This document shows positions 11,897 through 16,029 of a DNA stretch of 32,000 bases, in pieces. Source of the DNA: Undibacterium sp. SXout11W (lineage in GTDB: Bacteria; Pseudomonadota; Gammaproteobacteria; Burkholderiales; Burkholderiaceae_D); assembly GCF_049339905.1 (NCBI RefSeq), contig NZ_JBMPPG010000008.1; one strand, given 5' to 3'. The notes under the pieces were generated by a model. That model was not told the origin of the DNA. It made no database searches and saw only the letters and a list, made by a program, of their open reading frames with translations. Positions within the stretch are counted from its first letter, which is position 1, and each line of letters begins with the position of its first letter. Made by a program: the position numbers and the translations under genes.

Positions 11897-12307
11897 TCAA
11901 TGCACTCCTGGTTCACCGATCGTCAACGGTCTGCGAAACAGGGAACGGAACTCATTATTTTTTTCTATGCTGTTACTTTTGTCGTCCCAGTTTTTGACTA
12001 GCGTGTTGATGCCGTAAATGCGGTTGTTTTCGATGACAACGTCTTTGCTGTCAATCAGCGAGATCGCCGCCTTGGGAGCTTCATCGCCCATGCTTTCTAT
12101 AATGATGTCGTTGTTGCGAATGATTGTGCGGTCGGCCTGATGCAGTTTGATGGCTGCCGCACTTTCAACAGCAGCTTTGCCTTTGAAGATGATGATGTTG
12201 TTTTCAATCAATTGGTTCGGGCCAAATAAATAGATGGCGGCATGACCATCGGTGATTTCTATGGTGCTGTTGCGGATGATGTTGGCAGCGCCGTCCATGC
12301 CGATGGC
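11897..12307 (-). repeat. 411-bp direct repeat, copy 1 of 3 (3' end of beta-helix gene)
   Basis: Aligned by eye base-for-base with 13650-14060 (few mismatches) and with 15619-16029 (more diverged). Constant offsets of 1753 and 3722 nt. Confidence 0.85.
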
Positions 12308-12910
12308 TTTGCGGAAAAAACCGCTGTAATTAGCTATAGTGCTACCCGACTCTATATAAAGACGCTCAACGACGTTTTCTGTTTTTTGATAGGCACTCGC
12401 GGATGGCGGTAATTTTTTTAAAAATTTTTGAAACTCATTTTCTGCCATTCCTATCGTTTGTGGTGAATCATACATTGCCTTAAAGTCAGAAAGCAGACTA
12501 GCCTCAGGTGCATTCAGTAAAATTGCCGAATCAGTTCGACTTTTGATTGATCCATGACGGATCGTTATACGACTCGGCACTTCTTTGTCGCCCCAAACAC
12601 GTATCCCTGGCATTCCCAAAACCTCCGCACTCATCACAAAACCATGCAAATCAAGCACCACATCCGATGTACGAATGTCTAACATCACACTGCCTGTCGC
12701 ACTTCTTTCTCCTCCTTCACTGAAGACATACATCCGTGGCACCTTGATATCATGTGTCAGACAATACTCTCCTGGCTGAGTGATGTCCGGTACAGTAACC
12801 GGTGTATATCCACGCATGACTTTTTCTAATGGACGGCAGTTATTTTGTGCATTTGCCGTATTCAAAAACAATATCATGCTTATGACGAAAACAGTATTAT
12901 GAAGCTTCAT
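11897..12910 (-). CDS. Exported right-handed beta-helix protein, partner of toxin fragment 3 (candidate immunity protein)
   Basis: ATG 12908-12910 overlaps the toxin-3 stop (ATGA). Signal peptide MKLHNTVFVISMILFLNTANA|QNNC. The C-terminal 136 aa are near-identical to the two paralogs at 13650 and 15619. Confidence 0.8.
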   Translation of the reverse strand: MKLHNTVFVISMILFLNTANAQNNCRPLEKVMRGYTPVTVPDITQPGEYCLTHDIKVPRMYVFSEGGERSATGSVMLDIRTSDVVLDLHGFVMSAEVLGMPGIRVWGDKEVPSRITIRHGSIKSRTDSAILLNAPEASLLSDFKAMYDSPQTIGMAENEFQKFLKKLPPSASAYQKTENVVERLYIESGSTIANYSGFFRKAIGMDGAANIIRNSTIEITDGHAAIYLFGPNQLIENNIIIFKGKAAVESAAAIKLHQADRTIIRNNDIIIESMGDEAPKAAISLIDSKDVVIENNRIYGINTLVKNWDDKSNSIEKNNEFRSLFRRPLTIGEPGVH

Positions 12911-13653
12911 TTCGGACACTCCGTTGTTGGTAAAATTGTTCCAGGATAATCATCCTGTTTCAGACGCTTTCCATCCTTGTCGCATAGGTATTTGTTACGG
13001 TTTTCTTCGGCCTGGGTTCTGTCATAACGGTCTTTGCCAAGATTCTTCTTATCGCTAATCGACAAATCGATGGCACGTATCGACTTGTCTTCATTAACAA
13101 CCTGAATTTTCCAAAATGAGAGCGCTTTGTTTAGTAAATCAAACTTATCTTTAAAGTCCGTCCCATCCTTCTCACGCTCCTGAATCGCATTAAACGCCTC
13201 AGTAACCTTTTGCACATCCTTCCAGTCCTGCGCTTTACCAGGGTCTCCATAGGCTTTGAGTTTCTCAAACACTTCGCTTTCCATTTCTAATGTTCGCGCT
13301 GCATTATTGTTCCAGTTGTAGCACCCCGCCACTCCACAGCCCATCTGAACATCCCATGTATAGTCTGGGTTCGAGTCGTACAAACCATGTCCTATGCCAA
13401 ACTGGGTTCCCAGGACCGGTGCTGTCCAGACGGCATCAAAGGGGATGTTGTCAGGATTGCGATGACTGAAGGTGTCTTCAAAGGCGTGTAAATATTCGCC
13501 AAAAAACTGCAATTGTCCGCAACCTGTTGGCGCATTTTTTGAGACCGCTAATAAATTCTGCAATTGTGGGCTGTCCGGGTTGGCGATTGGGTGTTGCTGC
13601 TGATCGTAGCCGGTTTCGAGTTGTCCGGCGGGGGTGTAGCTATGCACGCTCAA
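12907..13653 (-). CDS. 5'-truncated, chimeric orphan toxin fragment 3 (probably non-functional remnant)
   Basis: Lacks the HYYM, VDDNP and YHF N-terminal third. It opens with a YD-repeat-like scrap (SYTPAGQLETGYDQ, compare Rhs YTYTPAGQIEHVYDQ) fused to ..ANPDSPQLQNLLA.. of the toxin-2 type. The only start is a TTG overlapping the upstream stop (TTGA). Confidence 0.6.
   Translation of the reverse strand: MSVHSYTPAGQLETGYDQQQHPIANPDSPQLQNLLAVSKNAPTGCGQLQFFGEYLHAFEDTFSHRNPDNIPFDAVWTAPVLGTQFGIGHGLYDSNPDYTWDVQMGCGVAGCYNWNNNAARTLEMESEVFEKLKAYGDPGKAQDWKDVQKVTEAFNAIQEREKDGTDFKDKFDLLNKALSFWKIQVVNEDKSIRAIDLSISDKKNLGKDRYDRTQAEENRNKYLCDKDGKRLKQDDYPGTILPTTECPK
13171..13586 (-). repeat. About 416-bp direct repeat, toxin-domain middle (fragment 3 copy)
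   Basis: Near-identical to 14897-15312 at a constant offset of 1726 nt. Encodes ANPDSPQLQNLL..GEYLHAFEDTFSHRNPDNIPFDAVW..AFNAIQEREKD. Confidence 0.85.
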
Positions 13654-14060: not shown

Positions 14061-14657
14061 CTCACAGATATTGCAGCCTTCATAACCGCGAAGAACCGCT
14101 TCTATTTTCAGGTTTTCTATCCTGTGTCCCGTATTTTCATAGGCGCTCGCAGATGCCGGCAGGCTCTTCAGCATTTTTTCAAATTCGTCTTCAGCATAAC
14201 CCGGTGTTTTGTACTTCGGCTTGAAATCGGAAAGTAAACTACCCTTAGGTTTATCCAACAAGATCCCCGACCGGGTCCGGCTCCGGATTCTGCCATTGTG
14301 AATCGTGATGTTCTTTTGTGTATTCTCCGAATATGAGGGGGCGATGCCACTCAAACCCCAGGCGTCCGCATCCATCGTGAAACCGCGCAAATCGATATCG
14401 ACATGGGATGCCTGGATTTCCAGAATTCCGTTATACGGAGAAGATCTTTCTCCTATGGCAAATACCTCAGCATGTCTGCGTGGCATATGGATATCCTGCG
14501 TCAGGCAATATTGTCCAGGTCGAACAATATCCTTGGCGGCTAACCAGATACTGCTCTTCAGGTCGGTTAGTTCGAGCGCCTGGCATGATTCTCCGGCATG
14601 GGCGACATTCCAGTCGCTGAGCAATAACAGGGTGAAGAACAGGCTATAGGGCTTCAT
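13650..14657 (-). CDS. Exported right-handed beta-helix protein, partner of toxin 2 (candidate immunity protein)
   Basis: ATG 14655-14657 overlaps the toxin-2 stop (ATGA), with GGAG 8 nt upstream. Signal peptide MKPYSLFFTLLLLSDWNVAHA|GESC. PbH1 repeats and the conserved C-terminal 136 aa. Confidence 0.8.
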   Translation of the reverse strand: MKPYSLFFTLLLLSDWNVAHAGESCQALELTDLKSSIWLAAKDIVRPGQYCLTQDIHMPRRHAEVFAIGERSSPYNGILEIQASHVDIDLRGFTMDADAWGLSGIAPSYSENTQKNITIHNGRIRSRTRSGILLDKPKGSLLSDFKPKYKTPGYAEDEFEKMLKSLPASASAYENTGHRIENLKIEAVLRGYEGCNICEAIGMKGASNIIRNSTIEITDGHAAIYLFGPNQLIENNIIIFKGKAAVESAAAIKLHQADGTIIRNNDIIIESMGDEAPKAAISLIDSKDVVIENNRIYGINTLVKDWDEKSSSIEKNNEFRSMFRRPLTIGEPGVH

Positions 14658-15622
14658 TTCGTGCACTCCGTAGTTGGTAAAATGGTTCCGGGGTAATCGT
14701 CTTGTTTCAGGCGTTTGCCGTCTTTGTCGCAGAGGTTTTGATTGCGTTTGGTTTCGCCTAAACTTTCTTTGTATTGATCATCCGTGAACAAATCAATCGC
14801 CCGTTTCGAGCCGTCAGTCTTCATTGCCTGATAGCCCCAGGCTGCAAGAGTTTGATTGAGTTTTTTAAATTTTTCTTCAAAATTCTTACTATCCTTCTCA
14901 CGCTCCTGAATCGCATTAAACGCCTCAGCAACCTTTTGCACGTCCTTCCAGTCCTGCGCTTTACCAGGGTCTCCATAGGCTTTGAGTTTCTCAAACACTT
15001 CTTTTTCCATTTCCAATGTTCGCGCTGCATTATTGTTCCAGTTGTAGCACCCCGCCACCCCACAACCATTCTGAACATCCCATGTATAGTCCGGGTTTGA
15101 GTCGTACAAACCATGTCCTATGCCAAACTGGGTTCCCAGGATCGGTGCTGTCCAGACGGCATCAAAGGGGATGTTGTCAGGATTGCGATGACTGAAGGTG
15201 TCTTCAAAGGCGTGTAAATATTCGCCGAAAAACTGTAATTGTCCGCAACTTGTTGGCACTTTATTTGAGGCCGCCAACAAATTCTGTAATTGTGGGCTAT
15301 CCGGGTTGGCGACAGTACTGTTTTTATAGGCATCGGCAGTTTTTCCTGTACTGCTGTCGGACAGGGTGAAGTGGTAATCCTTCAGGCGTTGCTGGTTGTC
15401 GAAGATGGATTTAATGTATTGCTCATTGCCGTATTGATCCACGTCAATGGGTTGGGTCAGTGGATTATTGTCCACGTACTGGGTCGCCAATGCAATCGTC
15501 CTCGCGTCTTCATAACTAACACCCGCTGCCATCGCTAAAAAGAACGTCATATAGTAATGAATATCGCTTTGATACAAGCCCGATGGATCAATCTTATTAA
15601 GCGGATGGCCTTGTGCATTCAA
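14654..15622 (-). CDS. Orphan Rhs C-terminal toxin cassette 2 (H/D-motif family)
   Basis: Opens (M/L)NAQGHPLNKIDPSGLYQSDIHYYMTFFLAMAAG. All family motifs are present (ATQYVDNNP, YHF, GEYLHAFEDTFSH, GIGHG, NPDYT), with the tail CDKDGKRLKQDDYPGTILPTTEC. The TTG start overlaps the upstream stop (TTGA). Confidence 0.75.
   Translation of the reverse strand: MNAQGHPLNKIDPSGLYQSDIHYYMTFFLAMAAGVSYEDARTIALATQYVDNNPLTQPIDVDQYGNEQYIKSIFDNQQRLKDYHFTLSDSSTGKTADAYKNSTVANPDSPQLQNLLAASNKVPTSCGQLQFFGEYLHAFEDTFSHRNPDNIPFDAVWTAPILGTQFGIGHGLYDSNPDYTWDVQNGCGVAGCYNWNNNAARTLEMEKEVFEKLKAYGDPGKAQDWKDVQKVAEAFNAIQEREKDSKNFEEKFKKLNQTLAAWGYQAMKTDGSKRAIDLFTDDQYKESLGETKRNQNLCDKDGKRLKQDDYPGTILPTTECTK
14897..15312 (-). repeat. 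About 416-bp direct repeat, toxin-domain middle (toxin 2 copy)
   Basis: See 13171-13586. Confidence 0.85.
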
Positions 15623-16029
15623 TGTACCCCAGGCTCACCAATCGCTAATGGCCGACGGAACATGGATCGGAACTCATTATTTTTTTCTATGCTGCTGCTT
15701 TTTTCATCCCAGTTTTTTACTAAAATATCGATGCCATAAATACGGTTATTTTCAATGACAACATCTTTGCTATCAATGAGTGAAATCGCTGCCTTTGGCG
15801 CGTCATCCCATTTGCTTTCAATAATGATGTCGTTGTTGCGAATGATCGTGCCGTCGGCCTGATGGAGTTTAATTGCTGCGGCGCTTTCTACTGCGGCCTT
15901 GCCTTTGAATATGATGATGTTGTTTTCTATTAATTGGTTTGGACCAAACAGGTAAATTGCCGCGTGACCGTTGGTGATTTCTATGGTGCTGTTGCGGATG
16001 ATGTTCGATGCGCCTTTCATGCCTATGCC
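15619..16029 (-). repeat. 411-bp direct repeat, copy 3 of 3 (most diverged)
   Basis: Same register and encoded peptide (LIENNIIIFKGKAAVESAAAIKLHQADGTIIRNNDIIIES..) with scattered synonymous and other differences. Confidence 0.8.

Follow-up and report, generated by a model that had tools for sequence, protein, structure and literature searches.

The array and the question it raises

The question raised by a 32,000-nucleotide stretch of Undibacterium sp. SXout11W (contig NZ_JBMPPG010000008.1, assembly GCF_049339905.1; the whole stretch is called the window below) is how the toxin genes and presumed immunity genes of one Rhs array come to be closely alike in some blocks and strongly divergent in the block between them. 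The array lies entirely on the minus strand and consists of a main Rhs gene followed downstream by five orphan modules with toxins of the DUF6765 family. Since constant blocks flank each variable block, we consider it probable that they act as homology arms, and that the variable blocks, here called cassettes, are shuffled between them by ordinary homologous recombination within this Rhs toxin-immunity array.

The main Rhs gene (16608..21527, minus strand) encodes 1639 amino acids with DUF6531, RHS repeats, an RHS core, and a C-terminal DUF6765 toxin (Pfam E-values: RHS_repeat, 1.7e-19; DUF6531, 7.5e-18; RHS, 8.1e-10; DUF6765, 3.4e-14), and a profile search of the PDB matched solved Rhs cores at E 1e-19 to 1e-22. 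Its tip is toxin T1 (about 16608-17495, minus strand), which begins after DPTGL; the toxin domain is preceded by 'DPLNKIDPTGL', in agreement with the pattern PxxxxDPxGL. The product of the next gene, partner P1 (15619..16620, minus strand), is the presumed immunity protein, with a signal peptide and a right-handed beta-helix (Pfam Beta_helix, 4.7e-09); its start is probably the ATG at 16611, which overlaps the Rhs stop as ATGA, and the deposited product (P0016) has 330 amino acids. Orphan toxin T2 (14654..15622, minus strand) has a complete toxin domain (Pfam DUF6765, 1.5e-23); it begins immediately after the P1 stop, with only 11 codons retained upstream of DPSGL. It is followed by partner P2 (13650..14666, minus strand; Beta_helix, 1e-07), with a probable ATG at 14657 in an ATGA overlap with the T2 stop. 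The third module is composed of orphan toxin T3 (12907..13653, minus strand) and partner P3 (11897..12919, minus strand; Beta_helix, 3.9e-08). T3 is truncated at its 5' end: approximately 66 nucleotides of Rhs-core-like sequence (13587-13653), reading 'YTPAGQLE..YDQ', are joined directly to the toxin middle, and the alignment of the junction to the core marks the join as illegitimate. T3 is without the N-terminal 100 or so residues of the toxin, and hence without the invariant D51 and H84.

Constant arms and variable cassettes

The last 136 codons and the stop of P3, P2, and P1 form a 411-bp segment that occurs three times in the window (11897-12307, 13650-14060, and 15619-16029, minus strand), exactly where the preliminary description of the locus had placed it. 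That description also called the three copies near-identical in DNA, which is correct for P2 and P3 only: the ungapped identity is 95.1% for P3/P2, compared with 84.9% for P2/P1 and 82.0% for P3/P1, so that the P1 arm is 82-85% identical to the other two. At the amino acid level, the corresponding values are 94.9%, 93.4%, and 89.8%. A second repeat, of 416 bp, relates 13171-13586 in T3 to 14897-15312 in T2 (both minus strand) with 94.5% identity. It encodes T2 residues of approximately 104-242, including the invariant H137xxxD141xxxH145, H170, and D178. The label of an Rhs-core arm that this repeat had been given is mistaken, and a Rhs-core identity was rejected for both copies: the stretch encodes the catalytic middle of the toxin and is common to modules 2 and 3 only. 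Similarly, the N-terminal and middle parts of the toxin had been described as conserved between modules, which is true of the middle of T2 and T3; T1 is only 42-78% identical to this arm, and T3 has no toxin N-terminus. The N-terminal regions of T1 and T2 share 97% identity over approximately 100 bp.

In the interval that separates the arms, modules 2 and 3 are only 35-65% identical. Cassette 2 (14061..14896, minus strand) comprises the C-terminal 80 or so residues of T2 together with the N-terminal 200 or so residues of P2, and cassette 3 (12308..13170, minus strand), delimited by windowed identity and synonymous divergence, comprises the C-terminal part of T3 and approximately 200 N-terminal residues of P3. 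Alignment profiles were searched for sharp identity boundaries, and these were found at the arm edges; between modules 2 and 3, identity changes abruptly at the 5' edge of the partner arm and more gradually at the 3' edge of the toxin-middle arm. The last 30 or so residues of the toxin form an island of protein conservation inside the cassette. For the repeats, blastn returned alignments of 412 bp (95% identity) and 687 bp (83% identity); these lengths and identities far exceed chance similarity, which was also rejected on the discontinuity in synonymous divergence described below.

The same contrast is found outside the window. In 68 partner homologues, residues 211-315 have a mean pairwise identity of 70-84%, against 20-49% for residues 1-210, and in 53 toxins, residues 211-300 are the most variable stretch (21-32% identity). 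Divergent segments made of the toxin C-terminal part and the partner N-terminal half, flanked by conserved arms, were thus correctly described for the window and recur family-wide, and the conservation contrast points to this layout being a property of the whole toxin-partner family.

Recombination versus constraint

Rates of synonymous (dS) and nonsynonymous (dN) divergence were taken from windowed Nei-Gojobori estimates, which are crude. For P2 and P3, the C-terminal arm has a dS of 0.06-0.28, and synonymous sites over the N-terminal 214 amino acids are saturated; for T2 and T3, dS is 0-0.35 in the middle arm and saturated beyond residue 260 or so. Such a jump from arms to cassette is the mark of recombination and not of faster protein evolution in place: in modules 2 and 3, cassette alleles of old origin are enclosed by flanks that were shared recently. 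The same discontinuity led to the rejection of in-place hypermutation and of pure tandem duplication. The P1 arm is of a different kind. Against P2 and P3, its dN is about 0-0.07 with a dS of 0.74 to saturated, and its resemblance to them therefore reflects purifying selection on the protein and not recent exchange. Exact shared runs in the conserved blocks measure 31-96 bp, the longest being 84 bp in the T2/T3 middle arm and 96 bp between the core fragment of T4 (see below) and the main core. Runs of this length should suffice for RecA-dependent homologous exchange.

A variable block of this kind might also have diversified in place, under rapid diversifying selection on a duplicated module, as has been proposed for colicin immunity regions; a divergent toxin 3' end and immunity gene between conserved flanks match the colicin DNase pattern (PMC9484751). 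The cassette, however, has a dN of 0.25-0.8 with saturated dS, dN remains below dS throughout, and the windows gave no excess of dN that would indicate positive selection in the toxin 3' end or the partner. Saturated synonymous sites beside flanks with a dS of 0.06-0.28, together with near-identical copies of each cassette allele in other genomes, make diversification in place highly improbable.

Mosaic structure in related loci

Related loci (numbered with an L below) were painted block by block against the window, and breakpoints were located by a triplet informative-site test. The metagenome relatives came from exact-protein look-ups, a pattern scan having given few close relatives. The partner that precedes T2 in L034 begins with a foreign N-terminal half (approximately 75% P3-like) and switches at about residues 198-205 to a P1-type arm (95-99%), after which T2 follows at 95% and cassette 2 at 100%. 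L003, from Undibacterium sp. SXout20W, has an orphan T1 that is 100% identical to that of the window in its N-terminus and middle and 70-83% identical in its last 70 or so residues. The partner in L003 is chimeric: residues 1-85 are at 43-57%, the sequence is then P1-like at 78-90% to about residue 200, and a P2-type arm follows at 95-98%, with a breakpoint at nucleotide 629 (about residue 210; triplet test, Fisher P 3e-20). The order of modules differs there, as T4-P4-T5-P5 precede T1, and positions 8855-11019 match window positions 14059-11895 contiguously at 92.7%, the T3 junction included. L015, from Undibacterium sp. Ji67W, matches T4 of the window at 96-98% as far as residue 282 and P4 at 94-99% over residues 225-350. 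For what lies between these arms, the toxin tail and partner residues 1-224, there is no DNA match to the window; the two-arm layout thus recurs in a second arm class.

The unique truncation junction of T3 precedes different cassettes, namely cassette 3 in the window and L003 and cassette 2 (97-100%) in L035, with a triplet breakpoint P of 1e-52 for the switch. The junction itself is 93-100% identical in L035, L036, and L044, and L044 carries it together with cassette 2 twice in tandem. Cassette 2, in turn, is 97-100% identical in L034, L035, L043, and L044, behind different 5' contexts. Cassette 3 is found in the Undibacterium loci L001 and L002 as part of a full-length toxin that forms the tip of the orthologous main Rhs, with a match of 91-100% in L001 (block painting) and 89% in L002 (blastn); L002 shares the downstream flank of the window. 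The relatives, then, are mosaic, with breakpoints at arm edges and identical cassettes moving between contexts. The mosaicism at arm boundaries that had been anticipated for related strains is present in L003, L015, L034, L035, and L044, and with the dS steps from 0.06-0.28 to saturation, it bears out the earlier proposal that the arms are recombination boundaries for cassette exchange.

In L044 (positions 1-3530) and L043, a 70-kb scaffold of the GROS21 metagenome, the tandem truncated T3-junction modules are 96% identical and lie at the end of the array. The flank downstream of them, with AraC, Fer2, and MoCoBD genes, is unrelated to that of the window.

Could the array instead have been built from a single anchor? 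Homology-facilitated illegitimate recombination at the Rhs core or the DPxGL region would displace C-termini, with occasional unequal crossover or deletion, and the conservation of the partner arm would be purely functional. Several features agree with such displacement: T4, T5, T6, and T2 retain Rhs-core or DPxGL-proximal sequence (T4 at 90% over 621 bp, and T1 and T2 alike at their N-termini as given above), the P1 arm is alike through purifying selection only, the T3 junction is an illegitimate join, and cassette 3, which L001 and L002 carry on the main Rhs, is found in a displaced, truncated orphan in the window. As an explanation of the array, it is nevertheless decidedly unlikely. Several breakpoints in relatives lie at the partner arm and not at a 5' anchor (about residue 200 in L034, P 3e-20 in L003, P4 residue 225 in L015), the P2/P3 arm has a low dS beside a saturated N-terminal half, and the one illegitimate T3 junction carries two different cassettes, which requires a later homologous event downstream of the junction.

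The mosaic might alternatively be an artefact, if short-read assembly of the window and of its relatives had joined repeats of approximately 410 bp wrongly. At 411-416 bp and 95-100% identity, the arms are longer than typical reads, and most of the comparison loci are SPAdes or metagenome scaffolds. The arm copies in the window, though, differ by approximately 5% and are hence distinct copies; the novel cassette of L015 lies between two arms of the T4/P4 type, which differ from the other arm classes; and the isolate genomes L001-L003 show the same kind of mosaic. The L035 arrangement is repeated at 99.9% in scaffolds from two other samples, and thus occurs in three independent samples, and that of L044 is found again in L043, a recurrence that argues against random assembly chimeras. 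An artefact of this kind has very little probability left.

The exchanged unit and a candidate interface

Twelve sub-segments were clustered at 90% amino acid identity across 25 modules. Discordance between neighbouring segments peaks at two points, between toxin residues 161-210 and 211-260 (0.86) and between partner residues 131-205 and 206-270 (0.93), and reaches its minimum within partner residues 25-130 (0.07). Modules that share an allele of toxin residues 261-290 always share the allele of partner residues 25-80 (six groups, 13 modules), while toxin residues 211-260 and partner residues 131-205 reassort independently. The P3-type N-terminal part of the partner pairs with four tails of the T3 type, among which divergence is moderate. 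A Spearman correlation of segment identities over 666 module pairs was uninformative, as all values fell at 0.6-0.8, driven by overall phylogeny.

On the sequence evidence, the consistently co-inherited core is the last 60 or so residues of the toxin (approximately 261-322) with partner residues 1-130. The variable unit had been described as the toxin C-terminal third plus the partner N-terminal half, which is right overall, but this unit is a composite in which only the core just named travels together. The preliminary description had suggested that the two divergent segments form a co-evolving interface; we infer that the co-inherited block could form the specificity interface between the two proteins, a role with which its inheritance is compatible.

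Predicted models of both proteins bear on where the arms end. The AlphaFold2 model of toxin T2 (mean predicted local distance difference test, pLDDT, 90) is mostly helical, and the variable tail forms a separate C-terminal sub-structure (helices at residues 249-261 and 286-296 with a hairpin at 265-275) that starts at a loop of lower confidence. The model of partner P2 (pLDDT 91) has a beta-helix over residues of approximately 50-323 with a helical insertion at 145-168, and the arm starts right after a lower-confidence loop at about residues 191-200. Because both arm boundaries fall between structural elements in these models, chimeras would be tolerated.

Proposed mechanism

The region forms the downstream stretch of an Rhs polymorphic-toxin locus. 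Each of the first five toxins is translationally coupled, by ATGA overlap, to a Sec-exported beta-helix partner, and the sixth has an unrelated partner. Purifying selection keeps constant the last 136 or so residues of the partner, predicted to be regular beta-helix rungs, and the N-terminus and catalytic core of the toxin, and the last 60-90 residues of the toxin and the first 200 or so of the partner are highly polymorphic. Lying on both sides of the variable block, the constant blocks could then serve RecA-type recombination and gene conversion with paralogous modules or incoming DNA, by which cassettes would be replaced, duplicated, or deleted while the catalytic core and the partner scaffold stayed untouched. 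Three processes appear to have been at work: homologous replacement between two flanks, displacement from one anchor, and unequal crossover. The T4 core fragment and the T3 junction suggest the second, and the tandem duplicates of L044 and the L003 chimera of a P1 N-terminal part with a P2 C-terminal arm suggest the third. Most simply, the arms would be kept for protein function, with recombination a by-product and not a dedicated mechanism.

Several points weigh against shuffling between homology arms as the account of this array. The P1 arm is synonymously saturated against P2 and P3, so that recent exchange within the genome concerns only the P2/P3 and T2/T3 arms. T1 is without the toxin-middle arm, and in this genome the truncated orphan could not reach the expressed gene in a single step; to bring cassette 3 onto the expressed Rhs would therefore take two steps, a first between the T2 and T3 middles and a second between the N-termini of T1 and T2 or the core arms. 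The comparisons with relatives draw largely on draft genomes and on metagenome scaffolds assembled from short reads, in which 400-bp repeats could be mis-joined. The co-inheritance of toxin tail and partner N-terminal part is equally expected from adjacency combined with a divergence too great to recombine. That the partner neutralises the toxin, and that the variable blocks touch, is something we infer from sequence, and the activity of the toxin is read at the level of a motif, with no significant Foldseek match in the PDB.

A further reading, which we put forward as speculative and on the whole unlikely, is that the array might be a library of specificity cassettes, comparable to the silent pilS donors in antigenic variation. 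Promoterless and even 5'-truncated orphans such as T3 would then store matched units of toxin tail and immunity N-terminal half, and gene conversion through the two arms would transfer these units to expressed modules at an appreciable rate. In this way, a lineage could change its targets and its protection with the enzyme and the immunity scaffold unchanged, and the extreme conservation seen in the partner C-terminal half might be kept partly for this role, or for a second periplasmic function.

Toxin and partner families

The DUF6765 family (PF20551) is matched by T2 with 84.4 bits against a gathering cut-off of 26.6, and T1, T4, T5, and T6 also score above the cut-off. Seven residues are invariant in the toxin alignment: D51, H84, H137, D141, H145, H170, and D178. 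The HxxxDxxxH among them corresponds to part of the Tox-HET-C signature (PMC3482391), and Tox-HET-C is related to zinc phospholipase C (Zn-PLC) and S1-P1 nuclease (Zhang et al., 2012; PMC3482391). As a lead only, this points to a metallohydrolase activity of the Tox-HET-C / Zn-PLC / S1-P1 kind. Foldseek against the PDB gave nothing significant for the toxin; the Clostridium perfringens alpha-toxin, a Zn-PLC, scored E of approximately 1.4. No Het-C or Zn-PLC match was found in Pfam at E<=10, NCBIfam returned nothing useful, PDB sequence searches with T2 and with a profile returned Rhs cores only, and DUF6765 is not mentioned in any paper of the searched literature.

The beta-helix partners P1-P5 have approximately 330-350 amino acids and a Sec signal peptide, and each follows one of the first five toxins; their Beta_helix (PF13229) scores are 32-40 bits against a cut-off of 25.9. 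The cysteine pair C28 and C54 of the partners is invariant or nearly so. A PDB sequence search with the partner was empty. Foldseek returned tailspikes, glycoside hydrolases, and lyases at a probability of about 1.0 and template-modelling scores of 0.4-0.48, which are generic beta-helix matches only. A partner lies directly after the 3' end of a DUF6765 toxin in 37 of 54 full-length homologues, and the others are found mostly in partner-only arrays or at contig ends. This position, the ATGA overlap, and the partner-only arrays in Massilia make a periplasmic immunity protein the most likely role of the partner. Exported partners with a conserved cysteine pair and cysteine-rich toxins suggest that the toxin may act in the periplasm or envelope. 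One partner homologue, P0046 (573 amino acids), is fused to ankyrin repeats (PF12796, PF00023).

A genome scan placed the family in Burkholderiales only, mainly in Oxalobacteraceae (Undibacterium, Massilia, and Noviherbaspirillum), and the protein-search matches additionally name Janthinobacterium and Collimonas. In two Massilia loci (L007, 7421-14620; L014, 5113-10792), at least five consecutive beta-helix partner genes or fragments follow a single Rhs-DUF6765 toxin; these runs carry at most a short toxin remnant and look like orphan immunity arrays. In L038 (6981-10135), a toxin-partner-partner array is followed immediately downstream by fragments of an IS66-family transposase and by a large serine recombinase, a hint that some arrays lie on or beside mobile DNA.

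The remaining modules and the neighbourhood

The fourth module is composed of orphan toxin T4 (10430..11896, minus strand), in which a 477-nucleotide Rhs-core fragment (11420-11896) precedes the DUF6765 toxin, and partner P4 (9390..10442, minus strand), whose arm class differs from that of P1-P3. Positions 11870-11250 form a classical 5' arm: across these 621 bp, they share 90% identity with the core of the main Rhs gene. Besides T4 with this fragment, the orphans T2, T5, and T6 keep homology to the main gene in their DPxGL region. Module 5 (7332..9277, minus strand) has orphan toxin T5 (8306-9277) and a lipoprotein-type beta-helix partner, P5 (7332-8348, minus strand). The signal of P5 is of the lipoprotein type ('AAISGC') and those of P1-P4 are plain Sec signals, so the partners may differ in their envelope location. 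Module 6 (5436..7288, minus strand) has orphan toxin T6 (6272-7288) and a partner without a beta-helix, P6 (5436-6275). P6 (279 amino acids) carries a Tat/Sec-like signal, 'RRQFIFAGSAGAISLLGSSASQA', and is unrelated to the beta-helix partners; one toxin family therefore pairs with two unrelated partner families. P6 had no Pfam match and belongs to a family of only 15 homologues in a large protein database.

A Pfam domain scan found no type VI secretion system (T6SS), VgrG, PAAR, Hcp, or Eag genes in the window or near the Rhs gene. The Rhs protein itself is without a PAAR domain; its N-terminus has, in addition to DUF6531, a hydrophobic signal-like segment ending in 'AAAC'. An open reading frame of 178 amino acids (21796-22332, minus strand) lies immediately upstream of the Rhs gene and has no match in Pfam or NCBIfam, and the flank from 21796 to 32000 includes PBP1, two ABC exporters, and peptidases. 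The G+C content falls from 0.54 in the Rhs core (0.545 in the T4 core fragment) to 0.44-0.49 in the arms and 0.37-0.47 in the cassettes and partner N-terminal halves, a step-down across 11420-21527 that is typical of horizontally acquired Rhs tips.

Comparison with known systems

The rhs-main/rhs-CT-orphan locus of Salmonella, the subject of the C-terminal displacement model, is close in architecture, as it shares a YD-repeat Rhs protein, a polymorphic toxin demarcated by DPxGL, a downstream immunity gene (here presumed), and a string of orphan toxin/immunity modules with some remaining homology to the core. Its main and orphan genes were shown experimentally to undergo homologous recombination over 522 bp at 95% identity (PMC3967940). 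Unlike in Salmonella, homology in the present locus is not confined to the Rhs core but occurs also within the catalytic domain of the toxin and the 3' half of the partner gene, and the unit is sub-genic (toxin tail and partner N-terminal half) and not a whole toxin domain with a whole immunity gene. Recombination can thus shuffle segments that span a gene boundary, and not just whole toxin tips.

Conserved blocks in the tandem immunity paralogues EsaG and TipC of type VII secretion systems (T7SS) drive recombination (Garrett et al., 2022; PMC9484751), and their variable part has been proposed as the toxin-binding face, with the conserved part as a structural framework (PMC9484751). The present array likewise has tandem partner paralogues (five here), nucleotide blocks of high similarity, and breakpoints within these blocks, and it can be likened to EsaG and TipC also in that recombination alters both copy number and sequence. 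It is an analogue and not a member: those are immunity genes only, of Gram-positive T7SS, and here the Rhs genes are betaproteobacterial, of unrelated families and folds, with the 5' block located in the toxin gene so that toxin and immunity determinants move together.

In the T6SS clusters of Vibrio cholerae, two-flank homologous replacement occurs beside one-anchor, homology-facilitated illegitimate recombination, which pushes old modules downstream (Kirchberger et al., 2017; PMC5361080), and both signatures are present here. The preliminary description had presented two-arm exchange as a departure from the classical model, which it is not, since two-flank homologous replacement was already recognised (PMC5361080; PMC3967940). 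Breakpoints occur throughout the Vibrio clusters; here, they are concentrated at the edges of conserved blocks, because the cassette alleles are too divergent to recombine.

The partners differ from colicin immunity proteins in being large (approximately 330 amino acids), periplasmic, and half constant. In colicin DNase/immunity pairs, the sequence around the divergent region is conserved. Divergence in the colicin DNases is concentrated at the toxin-immunity binding interface (PMC9484751). The present locus departs from these pairs in having no sign of positive selection, with saturated dS and dN below dS. With the Tox-HET-C, Zn-PLC, and S1-P1 proteins, the DUF6765 model has in common a mostly alpha-helical build and an invariant HxxxDxxxH with further histidine and aspartate residues; unlike them, it has no significant Pfam or Foldseek similarity to be placed by.

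What is new is the putative effector-immunity pair itself, a metallohydrolase-like DUF6765 Rhs toxin with a periplasmic beta-helix partner, and the near invariance of half of the presumed immunity protein is a difference from the known systems. The sharp boundaries offer ready-made chimera junctions for specificity mapping, at about toxin residue 243 or 261 and at about partner residues 130 and 203, and the natural mosaics are a system in which to study how competition loci diversify by ordinary homologous recombination. Set beside the systems above, the locus is a new gene family that follows a known recombination principle.

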